Part shown: positions 5,324 to 52,391 of the stretch, in pieces
Layout of the letters: each line of letters starts with the position of its first letter
How positions within the stretch are numbered: position 1 is the stretch's first letter
From: Candidatus Limnocylindrales bacterium
GTDB taxonomy: Bacteria > Chloroflexota > Limnocylindria > Limnocylindrales > CSP1-4
Length of the DNA: 64,000 nucleotides
Assembly (NCBI GenBank): GCA_035248345.1
Contig: DATFHO010000101.1
Span: forward strand, 80,407 to 144,406
Reading direction: 5' to 3'
Translations under genes and position numbers: made by a program
Notes under the pieces: model-generated
Databases searched by the model: none
The model's input: only the letters and a program-made list of their open reading frames with translations
What the model was told of the DNA's origin: nothing

Positions 5324-7078
<1,755 letters not shown>

Positions 7079-7085
7079 GGCGGGC

Positions 7086-9209: not shown

Positions 9210-9245
9210 ACCCCTCTTGACAAGAGGGTTTGTCAATACCCCTTG
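9160..9245. promoter_or_regulatory. dnaG upstream region with two copies of TCTTGACAAG, a third TTGTCAA and a hairpin cctctt-GAC-aagagg
   Basis: gtcaagTCTTGACAAGccg ... ccTCTTGACAAGagggTTTGTCAAtac. TTGACA hexamers occur on both strands in the 196-bp interval between divergent dnaG and the BNR gene. Confidence 0.3.
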
Positions 9246-9405
9246 GGAGTATTCCGTCCGGCGCCGCCGGCGCCAACGGCTCTCACCGGTGGCCCAGACC
9301 AATTCCCGCAGGTATCGGTCATACGACCGATGACGCTCGCGCCTGCCCGGCGGAGCCTTCACGGAGAAGCGGCAGTGTCGCCGCCACGGTGGAGGCGCAA
9401 TTTCC

Positions 9406-37741: not shown

Positions 37742-39328
37742 TCAGGCGGGCGGCAGCACCGCGACGAGCAGCCAGCGATCGCCCGTGGCACGCCGAACCG
37801 CGAACACCTTGTCCAGCGGCGACTCCTGCGTGGCGATGACGGCGCCCGTGGCGTCGCGCGTCTGCACGACCTGCGTGCCCGTCATGTGGAAGCCGAGGCT
37901 GAACCCGTCCTGCTTGCCGAACGGGATGAGCAGCGAGACGGCGCCCTTGTCGAAGCGGTAGGTCGTCAGCACGGTCCGACCCGCTGCCTGTGCTGCGACC
38001 AGCCGCTCGTTCATCTCGGCGAGGCGGTCGCCGTGGTCGGACGCCGCGAGGAGCGAGCCGTCCGCGTGGAGCATCGCTTCGTTCTCGATGGCGAGGTTCT
38101 GCGCCAGCGTGATGAGCACGTCGTTGATGCCCGGGCCGGCGAGCGACGGGTCGAAGTCCGCGACGTCCTGCCCGACCGTGATCGGCGGCAGCGTTCCGGG
38201 GTCGACCTGGGTCGGGAGGCGATTCAGGACCTCGGCCGAGACCGGCAGCGTCGCGTTCCGCGCGGGCGTCCCGGCGAGGACCACGCCGCCGCCAACGAGA
38301 ACGACCGCGACCACCGCGGCGATGGCGGCACTCGCCCGACGTGCCGCACCCGCCGCGGCATTGCCGCCGGTGGCGATCCGCTCGACGAAGGCGCGAAGGC
38401 GGTCCGCCGCGGACTTCGGCTCGGGCAGGATCCGCTCGAGGAGCGGTCGGGCCGCGCAGACCACGACGAGGCCGGACAGGAGCCCGACCTTCGCCCCGAA
38501 CTCGGTCGTCTGCGGCGCGATCAGCAGCGTGCTCACGACGCCGACGAGGAGCCCGAACACCACGCGCCCGACGCGCCCGCCGGGCACCGTCTTCGGGTCG
38601 GTGATCATGAAGAACAGGAAGATGAGGATCTCCGGCGACGTCACGATGGAGCGCCAGAAGTCGACACCGCAGACGGGCGCGAACGACCAGCGGGTGACCA
38701 TGCAGTGCCCGGACGCGGCCAGGAGGCCGAGCCCGGCCGCAAGCGTGAGCCAGAACGTGGCCCCGAGGATCAGCAGGTGCAGGCGCCGCGTGATCAGCGT
38801 GCCACCGACCAGGATCACCGCGTACGCCAGGATCATCGCCGGGTTCGTCAGGGGCGCCCACCAGAAGTCCAGCGGCTCCACGCGCGCCGAGCCGAGGATC
38901 ACGAACGCCAGGACCAGCCCGAGGTTGGCCGGGTTGAACACGTGGGAGCCGCGGTACCGGATCACGTACTTCGAGAGCAGCGACAGCGCCGCGACCCCGG
39001 CGAACAGCCACCACGCATAGCTCGTCCAGTGGTCACCCGGCGCCGTGCCGACCACCCGCATGATCAGCGCCACGGCGCTGCCGGTGAGCATCGCGCTCGC
39101 GGGCCAGACGAGCTGCTTCGTCTGCCAGAACGTGATCCCGACCTCCAGGACGAAGCACGTGCCGATCGCGGCAACGATCTGCGGCACGCTCACCCAGAAC
39201 CCGAGCCCGACCTGGCCGAGCACATGGACGGTCAGGACGACCACCGCGACGTGCAGCCGCGGGTCGCGGACGTTCGGGAGGACGAGCGGGTACGTCCCGC
39301 GGCCGATCGTGAGCGTCCTCGCGGTCAT
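37742..39328 (-). CDS. RnfD/NqrB-family-like polytopic membrane protein with an additional ~190-aa C-terminal domain
   Basis: GSHVFNPANLGLVLAFVILG parallels the RnfD (QNPFNPAMIGYVVLL) motif. FFMITDPKT parallels FFILTDPVT. The canonical flavinylation site SGAT is replaced by VTSP. After the last TM (AAIAAVVAVVLVGGGVVLAG) there is a soluble extension. Confidence 0.5.
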   Translation of the reverse strand: MTARTLTIGRGTYPLVLPNVRDPRLHVAVVVLTVHVLGQVGLGFWVSVPQIVAAIGTCFVLEVGITFWQTKQLVWPASAMLTGSAVALIMRVVGTAPGDHWTSYAWWLFAGVAALSLLSKYVIRYRGSHVFNPANLGLVLAFVILGSARVEPLDFWWAPLTNPAMILAYAVILVGGTLITRRLHLLILGATFWLTLAAGLGLLAASGHCMVTRWSFAPVCGVDFWRSIVTSPEILIFLFFMITDPKTVPGGRVGRVVFGLLVGVVSTLLIAPQTTEFGAKVGLLSGLVVVCAARPLLERILPEPKSAADRLRAFVERIATGGNAAAGAARRASAAIAAVVAVVLVGGGVVLAGTPARNATLPVSAEVLNRLPTQVDPGTLPPITVGQDVADFDPSLAGPGINDVLITLAQNLAIENEAMLHADGSLLAASDHGDRLAEMNERLVAAQAAGRTVLTTYRFDKGAVSLLIPFGKQDGFSLGFHMTGTQVVQTRDATGAVIATQESPLDKVFAVRRATGDRWLLVAVLPPA

Positions 39329-39347
39329 GGTCGGGCATCATAGGTGC

Positions 39348-39974
39348 ATGGCACGAGACGAAGAACGAGTCGCGCGGGCGCAGCAGGACCCTATCGTCGG
39401 CGGGTTGCCCGATGTCCAGGGCATCGGCGTGGCAATGCGCCTGACGCCCGGTCTCGGCGTGCACCTCCGCGGCCTCGCGGACGAGGTGCTCGTCCACGAC
39501 TTCCCGGGCGCCACGCTCCGCCGTGACCAGCGCGAGATCCTGGCGACGGCGGTCTCTGCCGCGAACGACTGCTTCTTCTGCATGGACTCGCACGGCGCGT
39601 TCGTGGCCGCGCTCCTGGACAAGCACGGCGCGCACGAGCTCATGCCGCTGATCGACGTCGCGAAGGCGGGGTCATCGGACGGGTTCGATCCGAAGATGCA
39701 GGCGCTCCTGCACATCGCGCGGACGGTTCGGCGCGATGCGCTCGCGCTCACGGAGGGTGACGTCACGGCGGCGCACGAGGCGGGCGCCACCGAGGCGGAC
39801 GTGCAGCTCGCCGTGCTCATCGCGTCCGCGTTCTCCATGTACAACCGGCTCGTCGACGGGTTCCGCGCCCGCACCTCGCCGTCGACGGAGGCGTACCGGG
39901 AGCGCGCCGCCGAGATCGCCGACAACGGCTACAGCGCACCGTCCGGCCTCACGGCCGCACCGACGCGAGGCTGA
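39348..39974 (+). CDS. Carboxymuconolactone-decarboxylase (AhpD-like, peroxidase-related) family protein
   Basis: AhpD-core motif CFFCMDSHG, about 208 aa. Divergent from the RnfD-like gene with only ~19 bp between the start codons. Confidence 0.7.
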   Translation: MARDEERVARAQQDPIVGGLPDVQGIGVAMRLTPGLGVHLRGLADEVLVHDFPGATLRRDQREILATAVSAANDCFFCMDSHGAFVAALLDKHGAHELMPLIDVAKAGSSDGFDPKMQALLHIARTVRRDALALTEGDVTAAHEAGATEADVQLAVLIASAFSMYNRLVDGFRARTSPSTEAYRERAAEIADNGYSAPSGLTAAPTRG

Positions 39975-40063
39975 GGCCCGGCCGATCGGCGCGCGCTCGG
40001 AGGCGCCAATTCGTCGCCGGCCTCTCAGCCGATTCGAAGAAACGGCGGCGAGCATGGCTGCCA

Positions 40064-40420
40064 ATGAACCCATCGACTCGCCCGACCACCACGCGGGAGC
40101 GCGACCGCGCGCTGCAGCGCCTCCGTTCGATCACCGCCGGGATCGCCGTCCTCGGAACGGCCGCCACCGCCGGCTTCGGAGCGCTTGCGGCGGTCACGTG
40201 GTCCGGCTCCGCCGGTACCGCGGGCGATGACACCGCGGCTGCTGCCGATCCCACCGCGAACGCCTGGTTCACCAATGCCGATGAGGACTCGGATCTCCTG
40301 ACGGGCGCCGAGCAGTCGACCCCGGCACCCAGCGAAGCGGCCGCGCCGATCCAGCCGAATCCCACCCCGCTCGCAACGACGCGGAAGAAGCCCAGGGTCA
40401 CCAGCGGCGGTTCCGGGTGA
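40064..40420 (+). CDS. Small single-pass membrane protein with Ala/Thr/Pro-rich extracytoplasmic tail
   Basis: 118 aa. TM ITAGIAVLGTAATAGFGALAAV, then a low-complexity tail. Its stop overlaps the apbE GTG start (GTGA), suggesting translational coupling. Confidence 0.35.
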   Translation: MNPSTRPTTTRERDRALQRLRSITAGIAVLGTAATAGFGALAAVTWSGSAGTAGDDTAAAADPTANAWFTNADEDSDLLTGAEQSTPAPSEAAAPIQPNPTPLATTRKKPRVTSGGSG

Positions 40421-41382
40421 TCCGCTGGCGGGCGCTCGGGACGCACGTCGACCTGCTCGTCCATCGGGGCGATCACCGCGCCGCTCGCGCCGCTGTCGAG
40501 GCGGTGCTGGAGCGCGTCGATCGCACCTACAGCCGCTTTCGACCCGACAGCGAGCTCGTGGTGCTCAATGCCCGCGCCGGCACGACCGTCTCACTGAGCC
40601 CGCTGCTCGCCGACGCCCTCGGGGCGGCGATCCAGGCAGCGGGCCAGACGGATGGGCTGTGCGACCCGACGATCGGGCGCGCCCTGCTGCGGATCGGCTA
40701 CGACGCGGACTTCGCGACGGTCGCGACGGGCACCGCCGCCATCGAGCTGCGCATGGAGCGCGTCGCCGGCTGGCAGTCGCTTCGCTTCGACCCGGTCGCG
40801 CGCACGATCCGCGTCCCCGCCGGCGTGGAGCTGGACCTCGGCTCGACCGGCAAGGCGCTGGCCGCTGACCTCGCCGCGACTGCCGCCGCGGAGGCAATGG
40901 GTCGCGGTGGCGTGCTGGTGAGCCTCGGCGGTGACCTCGCGATCGCCGGTGACGTGCCCGAGGACGGCTGGCCGGTTCTCGCGGCGGACGACAGCAGCAT
41001 CGAGCCGCGGCGCGGTGGCGAGGTGATCGCCGTTCGCGGCGGCGCGATCGCGACATCGAGCACCACCGTGCGCACCTGGCGACGCGCGTCCGTTGTCGTG
41101 CATCACCTCATCGACCCGCGAACCGGGCTTCCTGCGCGAAGCCCATGGCGAACCGTGTCCGTGGCCGCGGCCACCTGTGTCGATGCCAACGCCGCCGCGA
41201 CCGCCGGGCTGATCCGCGGCGCGGACGCGCCTGCGTGGCTCGACGGCCTCGGGCTCGCTGCGCGGCTCGTCTCCACCGACGGCGACGTCATCCGCGTCGG
41301 TGGCTGGCCCGTGCCGGAGCCGGCGCGGGAGCGGGACCGATCTCGCGAGCACGACCCGGCCCGCGCAGGAGCGGCGGCATGA
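40417..41382 (+). CDS. apbE: ApbE-family FAD:protein FMN transferase
   Basis: 321 aa. ApbE hallmarks: SRFRPDSEL, the FAD-binding segment LDLGSTGKALAADL, and SLGGDLAIAG. Confidence 0.8.
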   Translation: MIRWRALGTHVDLLVHRGDHRAARAAVEAVLERVDRTYSRFRPDSELVVLNARAGTTVSLSPLLADALGAAIQAAGQTDGLCDPTIGRALLRIGYDADFATVATGTAAIELRMERVAGWQSLRFDPVARTIRVPAGVELDLGSTGKALAADLAATAAAEAMGRGGVLVSLGGDLAIAGDVPEDGWPVLAADDSSIEPRRGGEVIAVRGGAIATSSTTVRTWRRASVVVHHLIDPRTGLPARSPWRTVSVAAATCVDANAAATAGLIRGADAPAWLDGLGLAARLVSTDGDVIRVGGWPVPEPARERDRSREHDPARAGAAA

Positions 41383-41981
41383 GCACGCAGGTGCTGTGGT
41401 TCGCGACCCGGGGCTCGGGCATCGTCTCGATGCTCCTCTTCAGCCTCGTCGTCGTCCTCGGCATCCTCACGACGATGCGCTGGCAGTCCGCCGGTTGGCC
41501 GCGCTTCCTGACCGTCGAGCTCCACCGGACGACCTCGCTCCTGTCGGTGGCGTTCATCGTCGCCCACATCCTCACGTCGATCCTCGATCCGTTCGCGAAG
41601 CTCGGTATCGACGCGGCGCTGATCCCCTTTGCCTCGTCGTATCGACCGCTGTGGGTCGGCCTCGGCGTCCTGTCGATGGACATCGGGATCGCGGTCCTCG
41701 TCACGAGCCTGCTCAAGGCCCGGATCGGGCAGCGGGCCTGGCGCCTCGTCCACTGGCTCGCCTACGCGTCATGGCCGCTCGCGATCCTCCACACGATCGG
41801 GTCCGGGTCGGACAACGGCGCGCCGTGGATGTTCGCGCTCGACGTCGTGTGCATCGGCTCCGTCTGCCTCGCGCTCATCTGGCGGATCCTCGCGGCCCGC
41901 GGGCCGAACACCGACGCCCTCGAGGCCGTCGCAGGAGGCGTCCAGCGCGTCCAGCGCGTCCACCGCTCGACGCCGCGATGA
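41379..41981 (+). CDS. Ferric-reductase-like transmembrane domain (FRD/MsrQ-type, putative di-heme b) membrane protein
   Basis: ~200 aa, about 6 TM helices (my estimate). Conserved His residues in TM helices (ELHRTT, VAHILTS, LVHWLAY, ILHTIGS). ATG overlaps the apbE stop (ATGA). Confidence 0.6.
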   Translation: MSTQVLWFATRGSGIVSMLLFSLVVVLGILTTMRWQSAGWPRFLTVELHRTTSLLSVAFIVAHILTSILDPFAKLGIDAALIPFASSYRPLWVGLGVLSMDIGIAVLVTSLLKARIGQRAWRLVHWLAYASWPLAILHTIGSGSDNGAPWMFALDVVCIGSVCLALIWRILAARGPNTDALEAVAGGVQRVQRVHRSTPR

Positions 41982-43243
41982 ACGGCGCGCGGGTTCTCGC
42001 CGGGCCACCGCTCGCATCCGGAGCCGAACCGTTCGAGGACCACCGGGCACGCCTGGGGCCATTGCCCCGTGGCGGGCGGTCCGCCGTCATCCACGAGCTG
42101 GAGCAGAGCGGGCTCCTCGGCCGCGGTGGCGCCGGGTTCCCGGTCGGCCGCAAGTGGCGGTCCGTCGCCGAACGCTCGGATGGCCGCGGGGCGGTCGTGC
42201 TGGTCAACGGCGCCGAGGGCGAGCCGCTCTCGCACAAGGACCGCACCCTCCTCGCCCTCCGGCCCCACCTCGTCCTCGACGGCGCCCAGCTGGCGGCGGA
42301 CGCCGTCGGCGCGGACGAGGTCATCCTGTACGTGGGTGAGGCACACGACGGCGCCGTGGAGGCGCTCCAGCGTGCCGGCGCGGAGCGCATCGCGGCGCGC
42401 GCCGGGTTCCCCGTGCCGGTTCGGATCTCGCGCGCGCCGGATCGGTACGTCGCCGGCGAAGAATCGGCGGCCGTCCACTTCGTGAATGCCGGTGATGCGC
42501 GCCCCATCACCACGCCGCCGCGACCGTACGAGCGGGGTGTCGCGGGCCTGCCCACGCTGGTCCAGAACGTGGAGAGCCTCGCGCACGCGGCCCTCATCGC
42601 GCGCAGGGGCGCCGCCTGGTACCGCGAGGCCGGCCGGGGCGAGACGCGCGGCACGGCGGTCATCACGGTGACGGCCCCGGGCGGACGGCCTCGCGTTCGC
42701 GAGATCGAGCTTGGACAGACGATCGGTGAGGTCGCGGCCACGGACGTCGCCGGCGAGGCGGCGCCGAGGCTGGAAACGACGCAGGCGGTCCTCCTGGGCG
42801 GCTATTTCGGGCGATGGGTCGGCGCCGAGCGCGCATGGGACCTGCAGCTCGATCCCGCGCAGCTGCGCGCCGACGGCCTCGCGCTCGGGGCCGGCATCGT
42901 CGCCTTTCTGTCGAACGCCACGTGTCCCATCATCGCCACAGCCCGCATCGCGGAGTACATGGCGGCGCAGAGCGCGGCCCAATGCGGGCCGTGCGTCTTC
43001 GGGCTGCGCTCGATCGCCGACGCGATGGGCCGGCTGGCGCGGCTCGAAGCGCATCGAGACGACTGGGACAACGTCGAACGGTGGGCGGCGCAGGTCAGGA
43101 ATCGGGGCGCCTGCCGCCATCCCGACGGCGCCGTGGGCATGCTCGAGAGCGCCCTCATGACGTTCGACGGCGAGCTCGAGCGGCACTGGCGCACGAAGCG
43201 CTGCGCATTCGCGGCGATCGCGGGATCCGGCAAGGCGGCGTGA
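41978..43243 (+). CDS. NuoF-like (NADH-dehydrogenase 51-kDa-type) FMN/Fe-S flavoprotein
   Basis: SGLLGRGGAGFPVGRKW is the NuoF FMN-site glycine loop. C-terminal Cys motif CPIIATARIAEYMAAQSAAQCGPCVFG. ATGA overlap with the FRD gene. Confidence 0.65.
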   Translation: MNGARVLAGPPLASGAEPFEDHRARLGPLPRGGRSAVIHELEQSGLLGRGGAGFPVGRKWRSVAERSDGRGAVVLVNGAEGEPLSHKDRTLLALRPHLVLDGAQLAADAVGADEVILYVGEAHDGAVEALQRAGAERIAARAGFPVPVRISRAPDRYVAGEESAAVHFVNAGDARPITTPPRPYERGVAGLPTLVQNVESLAHAALIARRGAAWYREAGRGETRGTAVITVTAPGGRPRVREIELGQTIGEVAATDVAGEAAPRLETTQAVLLGGYFGRWVGAERAWDLQLDPAQLRADGLALGAGIVAFLSNATCPIIATARIAEYMAAQSAAQCGPCVFGLRSIADAMGRLARLEAHRDDWDNVERWAAQVRNRGACRHPDGAVGMLESALMTFDGELERHWRTKRCAFAAIAGSGKAA

Positions 43244-43488
43244 TGGCGACGGAGATCGCCCCTGCCCACGGCAGGCCACTGGCGAAGGCGGAGACGCGCC
43301 TCGAGGTCGATCGCATCCTGTGCGACGGATATGGCATGTGCGCCGAGCTCCTCCCGGAGCTCATCGAGCTCGATGATTGGGGCTATCCGATCGTCCACTC
43401 CCTGGTGCCGCGACGGCTCGAGGGGGTTGCCCGGAAGGCCGTCGAGGTCTGTCCGGTCCTTGCCCTGCGACTCCGCACGGGACGCTGA
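43243..43488 (+). CDS. Small ferredoxin (CxxYxxC...CP, 3Fe-4S/4Fe-4S single-cluster type)
   Basis: 81 aa. CDGYGMCAELLPE...VEVCPV. TGATG overlap with the NuoF-like gene. Confidence 0.65.
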   Translation: MATEIAPAHGRPLAKAETRLEVDRILCDGYGMCAELLPELIELDDWGYPIVHSLVPRRLEGVARKAVEVCPVLALRLRTGR

Positions 43489-43527: not shown

Positions 43528-44925
43528 ATGACGACAACGACGAGCGCGCTCCAGGACCAGCTCCAGCGCCTGCGGGCCGAGATCAGCGGCCGGGTCATCG
43601 AACCTGCCGACCCGGACTACGACACGCTCCGCTCCGTGATGTACGGCGGGGTCGATCGGCATCCCGCCGCTGTCGTTCGCGTGGCGAACGTCGACGATGT
43701 TCGCGCCGTGATCGCCTTCGCCCGGGAAACCGGCGCGCAGCTCGCGATCCGCAGCGGCGGGCACAGCGCCAAGGGCGACAGCACGACCGAGGGCGGCATC
43801 GTCCTCGACCTGAGGGAACTCCGTGCGATCGACATCGACGTCGACGCGCGGACGGGCTGGTTCGAGACCGGCCTCACGGCCGCCGACGTGTCCCAGGCGG
43901 CTGCAGCGCATGGCCTCGCGATCGGCTTCGGCGACACCGGCTCGGTCGGCATCGGCGGGATCACGACAGGCGGCGGCATCGGCTATCTCGTGCGCAAGCA
44001 CGGCATGACGATCGACAACGTCCTGGCCGCGGACGTCGTGACGGCCGACGGCCAGCTCCTGCGAGCCGACGCGTCCACGAACCCGGACCTGTTCTGGGCG
44101 ATCCGTGGTGGCGGTGGCAACTTCGGCGTCGTCGTGCGCGTGCAGTACCGCCTCGTGGAGCTGCCCGGGATCGTGGGCGGCATGCTCTTCCTGCCGGCAA
44201 CCGCGGAGACGGTCGAGCGGTTCATCGCGCTGGCAGGCGAGGCACCGGAGGAGCTCTCGACGATCGCCAACGTGATGCCCTGCCCGCCGATGCCGATGGT
44301 GGACGCGGCGTGGCACGGCAAGCTCGTGATCTTCGGGCTCATGTGCTACGCCGGGCCGGCCGAGGAGGGCGCCAATGCGCTCCAGCCGTTCCGCGACCTT
44401 GCGAAGCTCGCTGGGCTCGACGCGCCGATCGCGGACCTGGTGAAGCCGATGACCTACCCGGAGATGTTCCCGCCCGAGGACCCCGACTACCACCCGCTCG
44501 CGGTGAGCCTGAACCTCATGCTCGATCGCGTCGATCGCGGGACCGCGGAGACGATCATGTCGTTCCTCGAGTCATCGGACGCCTCGCTTCGCGCTGCCCA
44601 GATCCGGGTGCTCGGCGGCGCGATGGCGCGCGTGCCGGTCGACGCCACCGCGTATGCCCATCGGGCCAGCCCGATCATGGTCAACATCGCCGTCTTCTAC
44701 ACGGACGAGGAGGACCGCAAGCGCCGGCTCGCCTGGGCGACGGACTTCTTCAACGCGATCCGCCAGGGCGACGAGGGCGCGTACGTCGGCTTCGTCGGTG
44801 ACGAGGGCGAGGCGCGCATCCACGCCGCGTACCCGGGCGCCACCTACCAGCACCTCGCCGAGGTCAAGCGCCGCTATGACCCGACGAACCTGTTCCGCCT
44901 GAACCAGAACATCCCGCCCGCCTGA
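43528..44925 (+). CDS. FAD-linked oxidase (PCMH-type FAD-binding domain + BBE-like C-terminus)
   Basis: AIRSGGHSAKGDS, GIGGITTGGGIGYLVRKHGMTIDNV, RGGGGNFGVV, and a C-terminal KRRYDPTNLFRLNQNIPP BBE motif. Confidence 0.8.
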   Translation: MTTTTSALQDQLQRLRAEISGRVIEPADPDYDTLRSVMYGGVDRHPAAVVRVANVDDVRAVIAFARETGAQLAIRSGGHSAKGDSTTEGGIVLDLRELRAIDIDVDARTGWFETGLTAADVSQAAAAHGLAIGFGDTGSVGIGGITTGGGIGYLVRKHGMTIDNVLAADVVTADGQLLRADASTNPDLFWAIRGGGGNFGVVVRVQYRLVELPGIVGGMLFLPATAETVERFIALAGEAPEELSTIANVMPCPPMPMVDAAWHGKLVIFGLMCYAGPAEEGANALQPFRDLAKLAGLDAPIADLVKPMTYPEMFPPEDPDYHPLAVSLNLMLDRVDRGTAETIMSFLESSDASLRAAQIRVLGGAMARVPVDATAYAHRASPIMVNIAVFYTDEEDRKRRLAWATDFFNAIRQGDEGAYVGFVGDEGEARIHAAYPGATYQHLAEVKRRYDPTNLFRLNQNIPPA

Positions 44926-44958
44926 CGGGGCGGCTCGGCGCGCGGCACAATCGGGCGC

Positions 44959-45225
44959 ATGCCCGACGGGATTCTCGGCTGGATCATCATCGGCCTGCTC
45001 GCAGGCTCGATCTCGGGCTGGTTCGTGCGCGGCACCCGCAGCGTCCAGGGTTGCCTGCCGACGATCGTCGTCGGCGTGCTGGGCGGCGTGATCGGCGGCT
45101 GGCTCGCCCAGCAGATGAACGGCCAGCCGGTGACCGGGTTCATCGGGGCGCTCGTCTTCGCGATCATCGGGTCGATGCTGGTGCGGATCGTGCTGAAATC
45201 CCTGGAGGGCGACCGCAAGCGCTGA
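44959..45225 (+). CDS. GlsB/YeaQ/YmgE-family small membrane stress protein
   Basis: 88 aa. GWIIIGLLAGSISGWFV...ALVFAIIGSMLV is typical of the transglycosylase-associated (GlsB) family. Confidence 0.7.
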   Translation: MPDGILGWIIIGLLAGSISGWFVRGTRSVQGCLPTIVVGVLGGVIGGWLAQQMNGQPVTGFIGALVFAIIGSMLVRIVLKSLEGDRKR

Positions 45226-45280: not shown

Positions 45281-46015
45281 TCAGCGCCAGTCGATCGTGA
45301 CCACCTCGACCGGCTCGGAGAACCCCTTCAGCAGCTCGCTGCGGGGTGCCGACGTCGGGTAGGCATCGCCCGCCGTCGCGACGCTCGCGACGATCTCGTT
45401 GCCGCCGGCGATCGAGGCGATCCGCGATGCCTCGTGGACGCCACGGCCGCGGAAGTTCTCGCCGACCTGGTTCGCGTCCGCGGCGTGGATCCCGATCCTG
45501 ATGGGCGGCGCGAAGCCTGCCTTCTGGCGGTGCTCGGCGAGCCGGCGCTGGATCGCCACGGCTGCCGCCACCGCCTGCTCCGGCGAGTCGAAGCCGACGA
45601 AGAAGCCGTCGCCGGTCGTCGAGATCTCCTTGCCCTGATGCGCGGTGAAGACCTCCCGGAGCGTGGCGTCGTGCCAGCGCAGCAGCGTGTCCCACGCTTC
45701 GTCGCCCATCACCTCGACCAGGTTGGTGGAACCGACGACGTCCGTGAACATGAAGGTCTTGAGGACGCGGCGCTTGGGCTCGGCCTTGCCACGGAGCTGC
45801 CACGGCAGGAGCTCGGCGACATCCTCGATCCAGATCGCCGCGGTCGGGCACGCGAAGGCAGCCTCGCGAACGAGCTCGTCCTCCACGCTGTCCGGATCGA
45901 CGACGTCGGCCTTCGCGAAGTCACCTCGGAGCCAGTCGAACGCCGTGGGCGCGATCGTGATGCAGTTGCCGGCACCGATGCATTTGTGCCGGTCGACGCC
46001 GACGCGCAGCGGCAT
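45281..46015 (-). CDS. Ferredoxin-like domain fused to class III adenylate/guanylate cyclase catalytic domain
   Basis: N-terminal VDRHKCIGAGNCITIAPTAFDW...AFACPTAAI is a CxxAxxC...CP cluster motif. C-terminal CHD: FMFTDVVGSTNL...TTGDGFFVGF...IRIGIHAADA...GRGVHEASRI. The start codon (46013-46015) overlaps the stop of the LAL regulator (46015-46017) by 1 nt. Confidence 0.7.
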   Translation of the reverse strand: MPLRVGVDRHKCIGAGNCITIAPTAFDWLRGDFAKADVVDPDSVEDELVREAAFACPTAAIWIEDVAELLPWQLRGKAEPKRRVLKTFMFTDVVGSTNLVEVMGDEAWDTLLRWHDATLREVFTAHQGKEISTTGDGFFVGFDSPEQAVAAAVAIQRRLAEHRQKAGFAPPIRIGIHAADANQVGENFRGRGVHEASRIASIAGGNEIVASVATAGDAYPTSAPRSELLKGFSEPVEVVTIDWR

Positions 46016-49000
46016 CAGCCGGCCCCCGCGGGTTGGGCGCCGCCTGAAGCCGCCACCAGGCCGGCGGTCCCGCCGAGGCCACGGAACGCGAGCGTCGTGG
46101 CCTCCGCCCGGCTCGACGCGCCGAGGCCGGCGTAGACGCGGGTCAGCCGCTGGGCGAGATCGGCCTCGGACATCCCGAGCGCCGCCGCCATCTCGCTGTT
46201 CGTCTGGCCTTCGGTCAGGAGCTTGGCGATGCGTCGATCCGTGTCGTCGAGCCCGCCCGCGCCGCTCGGCGCGGCGGGTTGCGTGGCTGCGGCGGCGCCG
46301 CCGGCAACCGCGGGCTCGAAGGCGCCCGCGAGGCCTACCAGCTCGCGACCGAGCGGGCTTCGGAGCCAGCGCACGCGGACGTGGTCATCAACCGTTGCCT
46401 GCGCGATCCGCGACAGCGTGAGGCGCAGCCAGTCGCGGACCTGCTCCTGCATGTCCGGCGGTGCGCCGGAGAGCACGCCGCGACTCGCGGACAGGACCGC
46501 CTCGAGGTGCACGTCCTCCGTGATCGCATCCTGGAGGGCCTGCATCACGGCAGCGCCTGCGGCTGCCGCAGCTTCCAGATCGCCGTGGGCCAGCGCAATC
46601 TCCGCCTTGGCGGCGTCCGCATATGCCGGCCATGGGCTGTGGCCGGGCAGCGTCGCCGCGATCGCGGTCGCCTGGTCCGCGGATTCCCGGGCCATCGCAA
46701 GGAGCGGCTCCGCGTCGATGTGTGTCCGGGCGGCAAGCCGTGCGCTGGTGAGCGCGACCCACGCCGCGGTCTCGCACCGAGCCGCTGCGCCTGCTCGCGA
46801 TGCGAGGAGCTGCGCCTGCTCGAAGTGACGGCGCATCCCGGCCACGTCGTCGGCGATCGCGCGGACCCTGCCGCGCATGAGCTCCAGCTGCCGGGTGCGC
46901 AGCGGAGTGAGCGCGGTGGCGGCCAGCGGCGCCGCGATATCGAGCCAGCGATCCGCGTCGGCGACCTCGCCGAGGTCGAGGTGCGTCAGCGCCACGCCGG
47001 CAGCGGCGCTGAACTCCGTCGACTGGTCGCCATCGATGCGCGCGGCGCGGTATGCCTCCTCGCCGCGGCTCAGCGCGAGATCCGGGACGACCTTGGCGCG
47101 CGCATACACGTGGACGCCCATGAGCAGGTGCAGCTCCTGGCGCGCGCGCTCGCTCTCGGTGACGAGGTCCTGCTGGCGCGCGATGACGCGCCGAATCTCC
47201 TCGAGGTGGCGCGCGGACGACGTCAGGTGGATCGTCGGGGCGTAGTTGAGATACGCCATCAGGATCACCGTTGACATCACGCCGGTGCGATCCCCGAGTC
47301 GCTCGTAGATCTCGAGCGCCCGCTCGCAGTGGTCGCGCGTCTCCATGACGATGGGCGCGATCGGTGTCTCGCGGAGGAGATCCTCGACGTCCTCGCCCGC
47401 GAGCACGCGCGTCGCGACGCCGAAGATCGCGCCGGCCCGCACCTGCTCGACGAACCACGCACGCACCTTGGAGACGGACATCGCACCGGCCTCGCGCTCG
47501 GCGGCGGCAAGGGCTCGCTCGTCCCCGAGCTCGCGGGCAAGCTCGATCGCCCGCTCGAACGCCGCCTCCGCCGCGTCGATGTCGACCTCGACACCGGACA
47601 CGCCGAACCCTTCGCCGATCGGCGTCTTCGTCAGCGCCTGGCCCAGCTCGAGCGTTGCCCGGAGCTCCGTGGCGCGATCGCCGAGCGCGGCTGCGCGGCC
47701 GATCACGCGTCGTGCCAGCTCGGCCGCCGCTTCCTCGTCGTGGGCCGCCCGGAATGCGGCGGCGCGCCGGACCTGCACGTCCAGCTCCAGCGTCGGGTCG
47801 CGCAATGCCTCCGCGAGCGCGCCGAGCTCGGCGAGCCCGTCGATGCGATCCGACGTCCGTCGCAACGCGGCGTACGCGTCGTCGCGCGTCGACAGCAGGA
47901 CGCGCCGCTCCGCGGGCGAGGACACCACCGGCAGCGCCGCGTCGACCAGCCGCAACGCCTCTTCCGGTGCGTTCGACCGGAGCGCCGCTGCCGCGGCCTC
48001 GATCGAGAACCGGGCAGCACGGGTGTTGTCGCCGGCCGAGAGCGCGTGCTGGGCGAGCATGGGCAGGCCCTCGGCGGGCGGCTCGCCGGCCTCGAGTAGC
48101 AGATCGACCACCCGACCGTGCACCTCGCGCCGGCGGGCATTGGACAGCCGCGACACGGCGAAGTCGCGGACCTGCTCGTGCGTGAACGTGTAGTCGGCCG
48201 CGTCACCCTGCGGGTGCGGCAGGAGGAGGCCGGCCTCGACGGCCGGTGCCAGCGCGGCCGCGATCCCGTCGCCGGTCCGTGCCGCGCCCGAGCCCGAGCC
48301 CGAGGCGACGCCGGAGCCCGCGGTCGACCCGGAGCCGATCGCGACGAGGTCGCGCACGCTGAAGCTCCGGCCAAGGACGCCCGCATCCCCGAGCAGCGCC
48401 AGGGCGTCGCCCGGCAGCCGGGCGGCACGTCGCGAGATGAGCGTGCGCACGGCCGACGGCACCAGCCGCGCGGCGTTCCGCCCGAGCCGCCATTCGCCGC
48501 CGGACTGCTGCAGCGTCCCGGCATCCCGATGCGCCTGCGCGAGCTCCTCGACGATGAACGGCACGCCCTCGGACTGGGCATGCATTGCTGCGATCGACTG
48601 GCCCTCGACCGGCGCGCCGAGCACCTGCTGGAGGAGCAGGCCCGTCTCCGTCGCGCCGAACCGCGCCACCCGCAACCGCCGGACGAGTCCCATCCGCTCC
48701 ATGTCGGCCAGGAAGTTCGTCGCCTCGACATTCTTCGCGAGCTCCACCTGGCGGAACGTCAGGAAGAGGAACACCGGCCGATCGGCGACGCTGCGAACGA
48801 CGTACCGGAGCATCCGGAGGGTGTCGTCGTCGGCCCACTGCACGTCATCGAGCAGCAGCGCGATCGGCTTGACGCCCGCGAGCTCCTGGATCGCGATCCC
48901 GGCGAGGTCGAACGTCCGCAGGAGCTTCGCGTCAGCCGAGAGCTGCTCGAAGCCCGGCTCGTCGCGTCCGGCAAGCGCTCCGGCGACTCGGCGAACCGCG

Positions 49001-49374
49001 GATTCCGCGCGGGTGCCGACGGCGAGCTCGCGAAGCGCGCCGTTTCCGAACACCGAGCGCGCGACCAGGAACGGCCCGCGGATCTCCTCGTCGGCAGTGA
49101 TCGCGACGGTGGTGAAGCCCGCCGCCTCGGCCATCTCGGCGGCTGCGACCAGCAGCCGGGTCTTGCCGATGCCGGGCTCGCCTTCGAGGGTGACCGCGGC
49201 GAGCCGAGACTTCGCTTCGCGGATCCCGTGCTCGATCGCCTGGAGCTCAGTGCTGCGACCGACGATCGATCCGGTCGCGCGCCGCAGCTGCACCGACAGG
49301 GAGCACTGGGGCTGGACCAGCGGGTCCAGCGCCTCGCCATCGAGGAGGCGCACGGGTCCAGCTTCTGCAACCAT
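46015..49374 (-). CDS. LAL-type regulator (AAA ATPase + TPR-like region + C-terminal LuxR HTH)
   Basis: P-loop EGEPGIGKTRLL and Walker B LLLDDVQWADDDT. A long helical repeat region. C-terminal DDTDRRIAKLLTEGQTNSEMAAALGMSEADLAQRL LuxR HTH. Start chosen at MVAEAGPVRLL (ATG 49374). Confidence 0.75.
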   Translation of the reverse strand: MVAEAGPVRLLDGEALDPLVQPQCSLSVQLRRATGSIVGRSTELQAIEHGIREAKSRLAAVTLEGEPGIGKTRLLVAAAEMAEAAGFTTVAITADEEIRGPFLVARSVFGNGALRELAVGTRAESAVRRVAGALAGRDEPGFEQLSADAKLLRTFDLAGIAIQELAGVKPIALLLDDVQWADDDTLRMLRYVVRSVADRPVFLFLTFRQVELAKNVEATNFLADMERMGLVRRLRVARFGATETGLLLQQVLGAPVEGQSIAAMHAQSEGVPFIVEELAQAHRDAGTLQQSGGEWRLGRNAARLVPSAVRTLISRRAARLPGDALALLGDAGVLGRSFSVRDLVAIGSGSTAGSGVASGSGSGAARTGDGIAAALAPAVEAGLLLPHPQGDAADYTFTHEQVRDFAVSRLSNARRREVHGRVVDLLLEAGEPPAEGLPMLAQHALSAGDNTRAARFSIEAAAAALRSNAPEEALRLVDAALPVVSSPAERRVLLSTRDDAYAALRRTSDRIDGLAELGALAEALRDPTLELDVQVRRAAAFRAAHDEEAAAELARRVIGRAAALGDRATELRATLELGQALTKTPIGEGFGVSGVEVDIDAAEAAFERAIELARELGDERALAAAEREAGAMSVSKVRAWFVEQVRAGAIFGVATRVLAGEDVEDLLRETPIAPIVMETRDHCERALEIYERLGDRTGVMSTVILMAYLNYAPTIHLTSSARHLEEIRRVIARQQDLVTESERARQELHLLMGVHVYARAKVVPDLALSRGEEAYRAARIDGDQSTEFSAAAGVALTHLDLGEVADADRWLDIAAPLAATALTPLRTRQLELMRGRVRAIADDVAGMRRHFEQAQLLASRAGAAARCETAAWVALTSARLAARTHIDAEPLLAMARESADQATAIAATLPGHSPWPAYADAAKAEIALAHGDLEAAAAAGAAVMQALQDAITEDVHLEAVLSASRGVLSGAPPDMQEQVRDWLRLTLSRIAQATVDDHVRVRWLRSPLGRELVGLAGAFEPAVAGGAAAATQPAAPSGAGGLDDTDRRIAKLLTEGQTNSEMAAALGMSEADLAQRLTRVYAGLGASSRAEATTLAFRGLGGTAGLVAASGGAQPAGAG

Positions 49375-49384
49375 CGGGCCGATT

Positions 49385-50509
49385 ATGCGCGAGCACGAGG
49401 CGAACGCGGTCGACATCCATCTCGACGCCGACGGCGAAAGCCGGCTGCATCGCGCGCTGCGCGGGTGCTGGCAGCCCGTCTGCCGCGTTGCGGACCTCGG
49501 CGACAAGCCCATTCCGGTGATGCTGCTCGAGGAGCAGCTCGTCGTCGTCCGCCTCGGGAACGAGATCGCGTGCTTCCCGGACCTGTGCGTCCACCGCGGC
49601 ACGGCGCTGTCGCTTGGCTGGATCGACGACGGGTCCCAGCCGGCCCCTGACGGCTCGGCCACGCTCGGCGAGCCGTGCCTCGTGTGCCCGTACCACGGCT
49701 GGAGCTACGACCGGCGCGGCGTGGTCCGGCGCATACCAGCGGTCCACGGCCGGGCCATCCCGAATCGCGCTCGCGTGACCCGCTACGCGACCGCAGAGGC
49801 GCTCGGCCTCGTGTGGGTGCTGCTCGACCCCGGCCCGGGCGGGTGGGAGCAGCCGAGCGCCGCGTATCCCCTGCCCCGGGCAGACGGGTGGTGGGACCGC
49901 GAGGGCTTCCGGACGATCCCCATCGAGACGTACGACTGGGCGTGCTCGGCGGCGCGGCGCGTGGAGAACTTCGTGGACTTCAGCCACTTTCCGTGGGTCC
50001 ATCCGGACGTCCTCGGCGATCGATCGAAGCCGCTGTCGCCCGACCACGAGGTCATCGACGATGGCACGACGATCTCGTTCGACATCGCGCTCGAGGAGCC
50101 CCAGGCGTCGGTCAAGGGCGATGTTGCGCCGGGCGTGAAGGTGCAGCGCGATCCGACGACGTACACGCTCCACCTCCCGCTCTCGGTGACGCTCGACCAG
50201 CGCCTGCCGCCATCATCGGAACGGCCCGACGGCAACCGGTTCATCCTCTTCCTGGCCGTCTCACCGCTCACGGCGCGGCGCTGTCGCTCGTTCACGTGGA
50301 ACGCGCGGACGTACAACCTCGATCCGTCGGCGGACACGGAGCTCGCCTCGTTCCAGGCGCTCATCCTCGACCAGGACCGCCCGATCGCGGAATCGCAGCG
50401 CCCGGAAGCGCTGCCCGTCGACCTCTCGCAGGAGCTCCACATCGCCGGCCCGGACAAGGCATCGATCCAGTACCGGCGCCGCCTGGCCGAGCTCGCCGCA
50501 GGCGGCTGA
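49385..50509 (+). CDS. Rieske [2Fe-2S] non-heme-iron oxygenase alpha-subunit-like (VanA/ring-hydroxylating family)
   Basis: Rieske motif CVHRGTALSLGW...CPYHGWSY. C-terminal catalytic domain with His residues (FSHFPWVHPD). Only ~10 bp separate it from the divergent LAL start. Confidence 0.7.
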   Translation: MREHEANAVDIHLDADGESRLHRALRGCWQPVCRVADLGDKPIPVMLLEEQLVVVRLGNEIACFPDLCVHRGTALSLGWIDDGSQPAPDGSATLGEPCLVCPYHGWSYDRRGVVRRIPAVHGRAIPNRARVTRYATAEALGLVWVLLDPGPGGWEQPSAAYPLPRADGWWDREGFRTIPIETYDWACSAARRVENFVDFSHFPWVHPDVLGDRSKPLSPDHEVIDDGTTISFDIALEEPQASVKGDVAPGVKVQRDPTTYTLHLPLSVTLDQRLPPSSERPDGNRFILFLAVSPLTARRCRSFTWNARTYNLDPSADTELASFQALILDQDRPIAESQRPEALPVDLSQELHIAGPDKASIQYRRRLAELAAGG

Positions 50510-50524: not shown

Positions 50525-51523
50525 TCAGCTCGTGACGTACCGCGCGACGAAGCCGGCCTCGACGAGCGCCCGATCGACGTCGAGCTCGTGGCTGTCATCG
50601 GCGGGCACGACGAGCGAGGCGTGCGAGCCCGGCCACGGAGCATTCGCCTTCGAGGCGAACCGGACCGGCACCTCGGAGCCGTCTGGCCGGGCGAGGACGT
50701 AGGGTCCCTGCGCCGAGCCATCCTGGACGAACCGTTCGAAGGCCTCCGGCACGAGTGGGCGCTCTGCGGCTCGCGTGATGTCCTCCACCCGCATCGTGAG
50801 GAGGCGCGCCAAAGGTCGGCCGCTGAGCTGTGCGGCGGCAGGCGTCGCGTGGACGTAGCGGCGCCGGTCGTCGGTCAGGAACAGCGCCGGCGCGTCAGGC
50901 CTCGGATCGACCGCGGTGAGCGCATCGAAATGCTCGATCGACGGATCGGCCGCCCAGAACTGTGCGAGCTCCGCCCCGCCCATCGGACGGTCGAGGTCGG
51001 CGCCGGCAACGTCGCGGAGGGCCGCCTCGTCCTGCCAGAGCATCGCCGCGACGATGTCATCCTGCCGACCGACGATCCTGCGCCCGAGGGTGAAGGCAAT
51101 GAGACCCGAGTCGTCCATCAGCCGGTCCGCCCACTTGCGAACTGCCGCGTAGTACGCCGATTCGGCATTCGGCTTGATCGGGATCCGGATGAGCCGCAGC
51201 TTCGCCTGGCGCAGTGGCATGGCCCGGGCCTCGCCGAGGACCAGCTCGTAGTGCTCGGCTCGCGGGCTGTCGAGCATCGAGCCGGCGCCCGGAAGCGAGA
51301 GGGGCTGGTCGAGATCCGTGCCGGCAGCCGTCATCTCCTCGAACCCCGCCCACGTCGAGACGATGACGAGCTCCGACCCGGCCTCGGTCTCGCGAACGGC
51401 GGGCTGCAGCGACAGCAGGCCGGGCACCGCGAGGGCGTTGGCAACGGCTTCGTCGCGGATGAATCGGAGCAGGCGCGGCGACTCGCCAGCGACGACGCGC
51501 GCCCGAAGTACTCGAAGGATCAT
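50525..51523 (-). CDS. Protein with two ABM/Dabb-like alpha+beta-barrel modules and a C-terminal PAS-like domain
   Basis: MILRVLRARVVAGESPRLLRFIRDEAV... and MPLRQAKLRLIRIPIKPNAESAYYAAVRKW... resemble ABM folds. C-terminal ALFLTDDRRRYVHATPAAAQLSGRPLARLLTMRVEDI is PAS-like. An alternative upstream ATG lies at 51610. Confidence 0.45.
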   Translation of the reverse strand: MILRVLRARVVAGESPRLLRFIRDEAVANALAVPGLLSLQPAVRETEAGSELVIVSTWAGFEEMTAAGTDLDQPLSLPGAGSMLDSPRAEHYELVLGEARAMPLRQAKLRLIRIPIKPNAESAYYAAVRKWADRLMDDSGLIAFTLGRRIVGRQDDIVAAMLWQDEAALRDVAGADLDRPMGGAELAQFWAADPSIEHFDALTAVDPRPDAPALFLTDDRRRYVHATPAAAQLSGRPLARLLTMRVEDITRAAERPLVPEAFERFVQDGSAQGPYVLARPDGSEVPVRFASKANAPWPGSHASLVVPADDSHELDVDRALVEAGFVARYVTS

Positions 51524-51743
51524 TGGGGTCCCTGGCTCAACTGATCCCGTGGACCGCCACAGTACGGCATCGTCGCGCGGTTGTCGCGTGTTTGCGATGT
51601 TGCAAATCATTGGTTGATGGGTTCGCGATTCCGCAACGCTCCCGTTGGCTGCCTGCAACCCCCGGCCTTCGGTCGGCCGGCTTCCGGCAACCCCTTCGCG
51701 GTCAGCATTCCGGGGTGTCCATCCCCCACGAGTCAGACGACCC

Positions 51744-52391
51744 GTGCGAACGCGCCGGTTGCGTCCGCGTCGTCGCGCGCTCCTTCCGCTCCTCGTCGCC
51801 GGCGCACTGAGCCTCGGCGCAACCGCCGCTGCCGGCCTCCAGCCGTCGTCACCGGGTCCGATCGCCGATTCCGCGTTCGTGCCCGTGACCCTCGACGCCA
51901 TCGATGCGTCGGGGCTCCCGCCTGCGCGGGGCGGCGGGCCCGCGCGTGCGCCGGAGACGGCGCCGATCGCGGACCCCTGGTTCCTCGTCACGCCGCCGGC
52001 TGATCGCGCACGACCGAAGCTCCCGGCTTCGGGCCCGATCGTCATCCAGCGGCCGTCGTCAACCGCCGGTTCCTCGACTGGCTCGACGTCTGTCGCCTCG
52101 ACCAGGCACTCGATCTCCGGTCGAGCGTCGTGGTACTGCGACGCCGGTATCTCGGCATGCACGACGAACCATCCGGATACCTCCGGCTTCGACGCTTACG
52201 CGGCGGCCGGACCGAAGCTTCGTGCCGCGATCGGGTCGAATTGGCGCGGCATGGTGGTCACCGTCGACGGCATCCGGGTGAAGCTCATCGACTGGTGCCA
52301 GTGCTACAAGGGCGAGTCGAACGAGAAGCTCCTCGACCTGTACCACGACGTCTACCTGCGGACCGGATCGCCCGTCACGATCCGCTGGTAG
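51744..52391 (+). CDS. Secreted RlpA-like double-psi beta-barrel (DPBB) domain protein
   Basis: Arg-rich n-region plus hydrophobic signal (RRLRPRRRALLPLLVAGALSLGATAAA), an Ala/Pro/Ser-rich linker, and C-terminal GRASWYCDAG...GMVVTVDGIRVKLIDWCQCYKG...LDLYHDVY DPBB motifs. Start (GTG 51744 or TTG 51759) is uncertain. Confidence 0.5.
   Translation: MRTRRLRPRRRALLPLLVAGALSLGATAAAGLQPSSPGPIADSAFVPVTLDAIDASGLPPARGGGPARAPETAPIADPWFLVTPPADRARPKLPASGPIVIQRPSSTAGSSTGSTSVASTRHSISGRASWYCDAGISACTTNHPDTSGFDAYAAAGPKLRAAIGSNWRGMVVTVDGIRVKLIDWCQCYKGESNEKLLDLYHDVYLRTGSPVTIRW

Follow-up and report, generated by a model that had tools for sequence, protein, structure and literature searches.

We describe here a two-gene signalling module, encoded on the reverse strand of a 64,000-nucleotide (nt) stretch of a Candidatus Limnocylindrales genome (Chloroflexota; assembly GCA_035248345.1, contig DATFHO010000101.1, positions 80,407 to 144,406; this whole stretch is hereafter the window, with position 1 its first nucleotide). 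In it, a regulator of 1119 amino acids (aa) of the LAL (AAA-LuxR) type of STAND protein is followed, with an overlap of a single nucleotide, by a 244-aa protein that joins an N-terminal mono-cluster ferredoxin domain to a class III cyclase homology domain (CHD). This architecture, its ligand and catalytic residues, and the obligate, coupled pairing of the two genes recur across at least two phyla; the ferredoxin segment is under purifying selection, and the CHD is a member of a STAND-associated cyclase subfamily. From these sequences, we infer the binding and type of an iron-sulfur (Fe-S) cluster, catalysis and its product, control of the cyclase by the cluster, and a link to the regulator. 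Specifically, we put at about even the chance that the protein is an Fe-S-gated cyclase, with the state of the cluster relayed by a conserved linker, which serves as the dedicated partner of a co-translated STAND regulator. Such a protein suggests an undescribed route from redox or iron state, via a second messenger, to gene expression.

A ferredoxin domain fused to a class III cyclase

The gene and the parts of its product lie as follows.

45281..46015, reverse strand: gene of the ferredoxin-CHD protein, 244 aa plus stop codon (open reading frame (ORF) listing, Pfam, homologues, codon-position G+C)
45821..46006, reverse strand: mono-cluster ferredoxin domain, residues 4-65 (Fer4_13, Fer4_15, alignment to solved ferredoxins)
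45962-45982, reverse strand: cluster motif C12xxA15xxC18
45845-45850, reverse strand: C56-P57 of the cluster motif
45758..45820, reverse strand: interdomain linker, residues 66-86, with the motif L69-L-P-W-Q-L-R-G76 at 45788-45811
45284..45757, reverse strand: class III CHD, residues 87-244 (Guanylate_cyc, PDB matches, AlphaFold 2 (AF2) and Foldseek)
45740-45742, reverse strand: metal Asp D92
45608-45610, reverse strand: metal Asp D136
45434-45436, reverse strand: H194, at the position of the usual Asn
45422-45424, reverse strand: R198, the transition-state Arg

A preliminary description of this DNA, made from the sequence alone, had proposed a fused ferredoxin::cyclase ORF, and both the ORF listing and the Pfam profiles place one at 45281-46015 on the reverse strand. 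The three profiles that it had named as a check all score above their curated cutoffs in the 244-aa protein, namely, Fer4_13 (residues 7-61, E 2.7e-9, 38 bits against a cutoff of 24.5, covering profile positions 1-56 of 58), Fer4_15 (E 2.5e-7, 31.7 bits against 22.4), and Guanylate_cyc (residues 87-208, E 3.5e-7, 30.4 bits against 21.9). The cysteine motif reads C12-I-G-A15-G-N-C18 ... C56-P57, and the protein holds no other cysteine. The suggested comparison of the N-terminal segment with characterised ferredoxins gave full-length alignments: residues 4-65 correspond, over their whole length, to the solved mono-cluster ferredoxins of Thermotoga maritima (1ROF/1VJW), Desulfovibrio africanus (1DWL, 1DAX/1FXR), and Pyrococcus furiosus, with C12, C18, and C56 falling on the cluster-ligand cysteines and A15 on the second Cys of CxxCxxC. 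A further ferredoxin-domain match is the entry named 'Possible ferredoxin' (8AMP). Throughout the 83 related loci over which we counted residue conservation and gene pairing, C12, A15, C18, C56, and P57 are kept without exception, and the N-terminal CxxAxxC...CP module of three cysteines, Ala15, and Pro57, first noticed in a single sequence, thus proves to be a property of all 83 orthologues. The pattern CxxA/GxxC(x)nCP is a recognised motif of [3Fe-4S] ferredoxins (PMC6237146) and, because the second Cys position is an Ala in this CxxAxxC...CP motif, the cluster that the protein is predicted to bind is most likely of the [3Fe-4S] type. Redox activity is known for the 3Fe-4S clusters of all characterised relatives (PMC6237146).

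That the ferredoxin segment is translated, as the preliminary description had assumed, is borne out by the start codon, the base composition, and the pattern of substitution. ATG 46015 is the first start available to the ORF after the in-frame upstream stop. In a window whose G+C is 68-74% throughout, G+C at codon positions 1/2/3 is 0.68/0.48/0.92 over the whole ORF and 0.69/0.48/0.88 over the ferredoxin part, and among 73 ungapped orthologues, the nucleotide differences in residues 4-65 fall on codon positions 1/2/3 in the numbers 631/510/1930. This third-position bias, together with the codon-position G+C, argues that the segment is translated and under purifying selection. The linker that follows is likewise conserved: its core, L70-P-W-Q-L-R75, is invariant in 83/83 loci, and L69 and G76 are nearly so. 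Mean identity to the window protein is 82% in the linker and 75% in the ferredoxin domain against 72% in the CHD, and ferredoxin and linker are therefore constrained at least as much as the enzyme to which they are attached.

For the CHD, the best solved relatives are Ma1120 of Mycobacterium avium (E 4.5e-21) and Rv1900c (LipJ) of Mycobacterium tuberculosis (E 2.3e-18; both phmmer versus PDB), and its top NCBIfam match is the LipJ cyclase region. Rv1900c itself has adenylyl cyclase activity. In the AF2 model, the domain has a predicted local distance difference test score (pLDDT) of about 80-95, and Foldseek gives template modelling (TM) scores of 0.85-0.91 to the CHDs of Ma1120 and Rv1900c. 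D92 (in FTD) and D136 (in GDG) align with the metal-binding Asp of both proteins, and D92, D136, H194, and R198 are unchanged in 83/83 loci; the metal-binding Asp pair, on which assignment as a cyclase depended, is thus intact in every orthologue. In the wider CHD subfamily, represented by 139 aligned sequences, both metal Asp are kept in 139/139, the Arg in 138/139, and the His in 128/139, a pattern that points to real enzymes rather than a decayed domain. Judged by these residues, the catalytic core of the CHD is complete, and the domain is a predicted enzyme.

Obligate pairing with a STAND regulator

The regulator, its junction with the cyclase gene, and its putative promoter comprise the following features.

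46015..49374, reverse strand: gene of the LAL/STAND regulator, 1119 aa, counted from ATG 49374
48766..49266, reverse strand: AAA_16 nucleoside triphosphatase (NTPase) domain, residues 37-203 (Pfam)
49159-49182, reverse strand: Walker A, GEPGIGKT, residues 65-72
48844-48849, reverse strand: D176-D177 of Walker B, LLLDD
46087..46239, reverse strand: probable LuxR/GerE-type helix-turn-helix (HTH), residues 1046-1096 (weak GerE profile, homology to the related STAND-CHD protein P0232)
46013..46017, reverse strand: TGATG junction, in which the LAL stop and the ferredoxin-CHD start share one base (sequence GGC TGA TGC CG)
49382..49387, reverse strand: -10 hexamer CATAAT, 7 nt upstream of the LAL start codon

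The LAL stop codon TGA occupies 46017-46015 and the ATG of the cyclase gene 46015-46013, so that base 46015 is common to both codons, and the 1-nt overlap reported earlier is exact. In 83/83 loci, the gene that directly precedes that of the cyclase, in the same orientation, encodes an orthologue of the regulator (45-85% identity). Among the 78 loci whose junction could be scored, the identical TGATG is present in 38 and a 4-nt overlap (ATGA/GTGA) in 3, while the remaining gaps are almost all 0-16 nt, with a full span of -4 to +47 nt. A stop codon stands between the two genes in all 78 of these loci, and an uninterrupted LAL-ferredoxin-CHD reading frame was found in none of them. From its geometry, the TGATG junction would be expected to provide translational coupling.

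Two other ways of joining the proteins were considered and rejected. Programmed -1 frameshifting at TGATG, which would give a fusion, finds no slippery heptamer, and the frame and length of the junction vary among orthologues. True LuxR-ferredoxin-CHD fusions were suggested by the database proteins P0123, P0124, P0126, P0127, and P0211, but these contain out-of-frame stretches (for example, 'GDLDDRRRLL') identical to translations of this gene in another frame, or are fragments. Such apparent fusions are probably artefacts of assembly or gene calling, and what they confirm is the synteny. More broadly, P0122, P0123, P0124, P0126, P0127, P0130, and P0211 are cluster representatives joined to LuxR C-termini or to a downstream oxidoreductase; the wrong-frame stretches in P0123, P0124, P0126, P0127, and P0130 are probably assembly indels and could distort censuses of domain architecture. 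The question of fused versus split forms in related genomes, raised by the preliminary description, thus has a divided answer: the form with the ferredoxin is always split (78 loci), and fused AAA_16-TPR-GerE-CHD relatives do exist, without the ferredoxin.

The presence of a 1119-aa AAA-LuxR regulator directly upstream of the cyclase, also part of the preliminary description, stands. The regulator has an AAA_16 match at residues 37-203 (E 3.5e-13) and, over the STAND region, a match to NCBIfam TIGR03903. At the C-terminus, the GerE match is below its cutoff (E 3.6e-4, 20.5 bits against 23.5), and a match to the C-terminal domain of DosR/DevR is weak (E 0.011), but residues 1041-1107 align by BLASTP with residues 924-989 of P0232, which form a strong GerE domain (68 bits). 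Between NTPase and HTH lies a long, probably helical region; Pfam found no TPR domain in LAL, and TPR_12 matches occur in related STAND-CHD proteins. Conservation of at least 98% among 55 LAL orthologues is seen at 224 positions, and E64-L75 (save residue 69, Ile) and D176/D177 reach this level. Given this conservation of Walker A and Walker B, the regulator is likely a working STAND NTPase. STAND proteins are reported to pass from an ADP-bound monomer to an ATP-bound multimer when an inducer binds (PMC4381067, PMC6468293).

A [CG]AT[AG][AC]T hexamer, mostly CATAAT, precedes the ATG/GTG of LAL by 6-7 nt (rarely 8-9) in 54/65 loci; ATAAT occurs elsewhere in the G+C-rich upstream sequence at 0 per kb, and in 51 non-redundant upstream regions, positional information is limited to the hexamer and the start codon. 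Lying 6-7 nt from the start codon, the hexamer reads as the -10 box of a leaderless mRNA, which indicates that the mRNA of this operon would be leaderless in metagenome-assembled genomes (MAGs) of both Chloroflexota and Actinomycetota. The LAL start at 49374 is favored because orthologue alignments reach residues 1-10 and because the conserved -10 box lies 7 nt upstream. No conserved -35 element was found in the 51 regions, a generic sigma-70 scan gave no match, and no intrinsic terminator was found.

Distribution and origin of the module

A search of 5.8 billion proteins returned 2324 matches, the best 120 of which were examined: these are 243-248 aa long (all but two 244 aa), are 77-100% identical to the window protein, and share its architecture. 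Homologues are named in databases as 'class 3 adenylate cyclase', 'ferredoxin [Candidatus Limnocylindrales bacterium]', or 'adenylate/guanylate cyclase domain-containing protein'. With each GTDB species represented by a single genome, 314 stretches were found to code for a relative, and the best 80 of these 314, which were examined, cover residues 1-244 (or 3-244) at 68-99% identity; both search patterns lie within the ferredoxin domain, and some of the remaining 234 stretches may be plain ferredoxins. Since the same fusion recurs in the best 120 of the 2324 homologues and the gene pair in 83/83 loci, the arrangement is not a product of chance. Most loci belong to Chloroflexota (Limnocylindria/Limnocylindrales and 'uncultured Chloroflexia'), others to Actinomycetota, including Gaiellaceae contigs of 167-215 kb and one 3.45-Mb chromosome, and a few to Dormibacterota. 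The occurrence of the module in at least 80 species-level genomes of dominant uncultured soil phyla makes it likely to be physiologically important there. A tblastn search of a plasmid collection did not find the fusion, and its CHD-only matches were below 37% identity.

To which cyclases the CHD is related was apparent from an exhaustive HMMER search of 1.84 billion cluster representatives, which gave 325 proteins at E <=1e-30, sixteen of which were scanned for domains. Outside the few ferredoxin-CHD clusters, the nearest CHDs (47-60% identity) stand at the C-terminus of longer polypeptides, with the architectures SARP(BTAD)-AAA_16-TPR-CHD, AAA_16-TPR-CHD, TPR-CHD, SARP-CHD, FHA-FtsK-CHD, AAA_16-TPR-GerE-CHD, and AAA_16-GerE-CHD among the sixteen. 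Two of these proteins, P0232 (1175 aa, AAA_16-TPR-GerE-CHD) and P0146 (1158 aa, AAA_16-GerE-CHD), carry in a single polypeptide the parts of the operon in the same order. By sequence, then, the CHD belongs to a STAND-associated cyclase subfamily, the catalytic core of which is conserved. The preliminary description had regarded the gene order as unusual relative to mycobacteria, but a CHD in last place is the norm for this subfamily, and that claim has to be withdrawn. The module looks like a split form of the AAA_16-TPR-GerE-CHD architecture, with a ferredoxin inserted at the junction, and STAND-CHD fusions are most likely its evolutionary source. Neither the LLPWQLRG motif nor the ferredoxin was found in the STAND-fused CHD relatives compared, and it is these two elements that, on present alignments, are unique to the family.

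These relatives also bear on a different reading of the ferredoxin. Structural clusters occur in some DNA repair enzymes, and the cluster here could likewise be structural and non-sensing, with the cyclase a detachable effector that is switched on only by ATP- and ligand-driven oligomerisation of the STAND regulator, as presumed for the covalently fused AAA_16-TPR-(GerE)-CHD proteins, and the ferredoxin a module for folding, docking, or dimerisation. The fused relatives, with the same order and no ferredoxin, imply that coupling of STAND to CHD needs no Fe-S domain, and the obligate pairing in 83/83 loci would suit such an effector, as would the invariant linker, which could be a docking motif. 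However, a complete ferredoxin of the electron-carrier type, held in its three-cysteine (Ala15) form in 83/83 loci, exceeds what docking needs, and the redox activity of 3Fe-4S clusters in every characterised relative (PMC6237146) also argues against a purely structural role. We consider this reading doubtful.

Proposed mechanism

In the reading that we favor, that of an Fe-S-gated cyclase partnered with a STAND regulator, a leaderless bicistronic mRNA transcribed from the conserved -10 box would specify one self-contained two-gene signalling module. The first gene would supply a STAND/LAL transcription factor, in which a helical sensor region lies between a Walker A/B NTPase and a LuxR HTH, and the second, translationally coupled to it, would supply a class III nucleotidyl cyclase with an N-terminal three-cysteine ferredoxin, most likely [3Fe-4S]. 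The state of the cluster (oxidised or reduced, present or lost, or interconverted between 3Fe and 4Fe forms) would be transmitted through the LLPWQLRG linker. In class III cyclases, the active sites form at the dimer interface, and only the dimer is active. The signal from the linker may set the formation of an active CHD homodimer and, with it, the output of a cyclic nucleotide, for which cyclic AMP (cAMP) is the default guess, the specificity residues being non-canonical. The cyclase might then act as a detachable effector or co-sensor subunit of the STAND regulator, replacing the covalent C-terminal CHD of its relatives; alternatively, it could supply a nucleotide that the regulator senses. 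A bolder version, which we regard as unlikely, would make the product of the [3Fe-4S]-gated cyclase, possibly not cAMP, the inducer of ATP-dependent LAL multimerisation, thereby closing a circuit from redox to transcription. If true, this circuit would include both the first CHD under Fe-S control and the first STAND transcription factor induced by a cyclic nucleotide, and it would run in abundant uncultured soil lineages, namely, Limnocylindria, Gaiellales-like Actinomycetota, and Dormibacterota.

Several observations weigh against an Fe-S-gated cyclase that signals to its neighbor. In the active site, the usual transition-state Asn is replaced by His194, and the base-specifying positions (Lys101/Asp157 in Ma1120) are Ser132/Asn187 in the window protein. 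These positions are not only non-canonical but variable, with Ser, Val, or Gly at position 132 (70, 8, and 4 of the 83 orthologues, respectively) and Asp, Asn, or Ser at position 187 (44, 29, and 7), and with D/K/N/S and D/G/N/A, respectively, across the 139 subfamily representatives. The residues of the window protein are neither of the Lys/Asp (adenylyl) nor of the Glu/Cys (guanylyl) type, and the choice between the two activities that the preliminary description had hoped to read from them fails: neither substrate nor product is assignable from sequence. In the AF2 model, the ferredoxin domain has a pLDDT of 36-64, and the interdomain geometry therefore cannot be read from it. On the side of the regulator, no cyclic nucleoside monophosphate (cNMP)-binding motif was found, either by a PROSITE-type pattern in the six frames of the window or by Pfam on the regulator, and no conserved operator was found upstream of LAL in the 51 non-redundant regions. 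Close gene linkage amounts to co-expression and is no proof of physical or ligand coupling. The reverse test, a metagenome scan with the LAL C-terminus, returned one locus, too few for judging LAL orthologues that lack a cyclase. Finally, every member of the family comes from MAGs or metagenomes of uncultured organisms.

The active-site observations, in particular, could be taken to mean that the CHD is a pseudo-cyclase, which binds a nucleotide or a protein partner, makes no cyclic nucleotide, and acts as a redox-dependent accessory regulator of LAL, comparable to the protein inhibitors of MalT. The absence of a canonical Lys/Asp or Glu/Cys pair and of the canonical Asn would fit such a role, as would the weak Pfam score (30 bits) and the fact that no cNMP receptor was seen nearby. 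We nevertheless judge it distinctly improbable, given that the metal Asp, the Arg, and the His are invariant in the 83 orthologues and nearly so in the 139 representatives, that the CHD of Rv1900c, named by NCBIfam as an adenylate cyclase (LipJ), also has a His at the position aligned with H194, and that Ma1120 is active with an Ala at that position (PMC4215837).

Genomic neighbourhood

An all-against-all clustering of flanking ORFs placed every other family in at most 11 of 84 loci. With flanks that lack conservation and a pair that is always present, the conserved unit consists of exactly two genes.

In the window, a divergent gene for a Rieske [2Fe-2S]/VanA_C-type oxygenase (49385-50509, forward strand, presumed ATG at 49385) adjoins the module so closely that ATTATG, the reverse complement of the -10 box, holds its assumed ATG, with 10 nt between the two start codons. 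A redox/flavin cluster at 37742-43488 further encodes a membrane protein with a weak RnfD/NqrB-like match, a CMD-family protein, the flavin transferase ApbE (40417-41382), a NuoF-like FMN/4Fe-4S protein (within 41300-43243), and a second small ferredoxin (Fer4_15, CxxYxxC...CP motif, 43243-43488). The oxygenase start at 10 nt from that of LAL on the opposite strand, and the presence of NuoF-like, ApbE, and second ferredoxin genes in the window, might suggest that the ferredoxin is a plain electron carrier for this oxygenase, with the cyclase fusion incidental. The Rieske/VanA-like gene, however, accompanies the module in only 2/83 loci (the closest relative, L005, at 90% identity and L057 at 44%), the genes of the redox cluster are syntenic only in L005, and the fusion and its LAL partner are conserved where oxygenase and redox genes are absent, all of which leaves this explanation scarcely credible.

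A STAND sensor next to a cyclase also recalls anti-phage defence, in which a Pycsar-like cyclase would make a signal nucleotide. PADLOC does match the CHD weakly to PycC (E 1e-5 to 2e-4), and STAND NTPases are reported to be common phage sensors (PMC13581612). These PycC matches, however, are at the level of generic CHD homology, no cNMP-binding effector is adjacent, LAL is the sole conserved neighbor, and the STAND protein ends in a predicted DNA-binding HTH. Further, the module is highly conserved (68-99% sequence identity) and lies in varied housekeeping or metabolic neighborhoods rather than in variable defence islands. A defence function is thus highly improbable, and we retain the reading of the pair as an Fe-S-gated cyclase with its dedicated STAND regulator.

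Other genes near the module are noted for completeness. Genes for an FAD_binding_4/BBE oxidase and an 88-aa Transglycosylase-associated (GlsB/YeaQ-like) membrane protein (43528-45225, forward strand) are convergent with the ferredoxin-CHD gene in the window, and both occur near the module, at variable distance, in five related loci, L001, L004, L005, L006, and L012. For an ORF at 50525-52162 on the reverse strand, of at most 545 aa, the only match is to ABM monooxygenase, below threshold; its third-position G+C is lower (0.81), and L005 has a counterpart (51% identity). In L015, the convergent downstream gene (6654-10703, reverse strand) encodes a zinc-ribbon, a CHD (Pfam, 74 bits), and an AAA_16 STAND region, and its homologues are found in 10 other loci. 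With this CHD-first gene, the order of which is that of mycobacterial Rv0386, both CHD/STAND orders exist side by side in these genomes.

Significance and comparison with known systems

Known inputs to class III cyclases comprise haem, flavin, bicarbonate, pH, and GAF, PAS, or membrane receptor domains. In full-text searches of the literature, we met with no class III cyclase for which an Fe-S ferredoxin is described as an input domain, nor with any published ferredoxin-CHD fusion or matching combined system, in agreement with the preliminary description, which knew of no such fusion. The sequence family itself has already been labelled by annotation pipelines; what appears to be new is the recognition of an Fe-S input domain, an obligate STAND partnership, and a leaderless operon. 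Were catalysis under the control of the cluster, a cyclic nucleotide would be tied directly to the redox, oxygen, nitric oxide, or iron status of the cell. Moreover, the strict pairing offers a simple two-gene system for the long-open question of what cyclase domains attached to STAND/LAL proteins do, including those of the mycobacterial Rv0386 group, and a 244-aa protein with three cysteines is well suited to heterologous study.

The mycobacterial proteins Rv0386, Rv1358, and Rv2488c, of the 'CHD+LuxR' type (PMC3466318), combine the three elements predicted for the module, in that a class III cyclase is joined to an ATPase of the STAND type and to a LuxR HTH. Of these proteins, Rv0386 is reported to be active as a cyclase and to select its substrate in a non-canonical way (cited in PMC3466318). 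Proteins of the Rv0386 type are, however, one polypeptide with an N-terminal CHD, whereas the module divides the parts between two genes, places the CHD last, and includes a ferredoxin. LAL itself lacks a CHD (its AAA_16 domain begins at residue 37), and the CHD is encoded by a separate downstream gene in 83/83 loci, which sets the module apart from that type. Closer still are the STAND-CHD proteins P0232, P0146, P0136, P0139, and P0133, the CHDs of which are 53-60% identical and which share the order NTPase, sensor, HTH, and CHD. These differ in being single polypeptides, with a low-complexity linker of 25-40 residues between HTH and CHD and with neither ferredoxin nor LLPWQLRG.

For the cyclase domain, the best matches in sequence and fold are the CHDs of Rv1900c (LipJ) and Ma1120 (PDB 1YBT/1YBU and 4WP3-4WPA), at about 33% identity. 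All three share a small CHD, the metal-Asp motifs FxFTDxxxST and GDGF, and the Arg, but the N-terminal partner is an alpha/beta hydrolase in Rv1900c, a short extension in Ma1120, and a ferredoxin here. Ma1120 has the canonical Lys101/Asp157, as opposed to Ser/Asn in the window protein, and neither Ma1120 nor Rv1900c has been reported as paired with a STAND regulator.

For the ferredoxin domain, the closest likeness is to the actinobacterial mono-cluster [3Fe-4S] ferredoxins of the Fer4_13 and Fer4_15 families (for example, M. tuberculosis Fdx, 8AMP; Mycobacterium marinum, PMC6237146), in domain length, in the CxxXxxC(x)nCP motif, and in the non-Cys second position. Those ferredoxins are free-standing electron carriers of P450 enzymes or are fused to a P450 (8AMQ), whereas the partner here is a non-redox catalyst. 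Because the attached domain would catalyse a non-redox reaction, sensing is to be argued over electron delivery. The logic would then be that of cofactor-gated class III cyclases, such as the haem H-NOX soluble guanylate cyclase and the BLUF and LOV photoactivated cyclases, in which an N-terminal sensor, a conserved linker, and a dimeric CHD follow one another. The arrangement would be alike in each part, with the difference that the cofactor here would be an Fe-S cluster.

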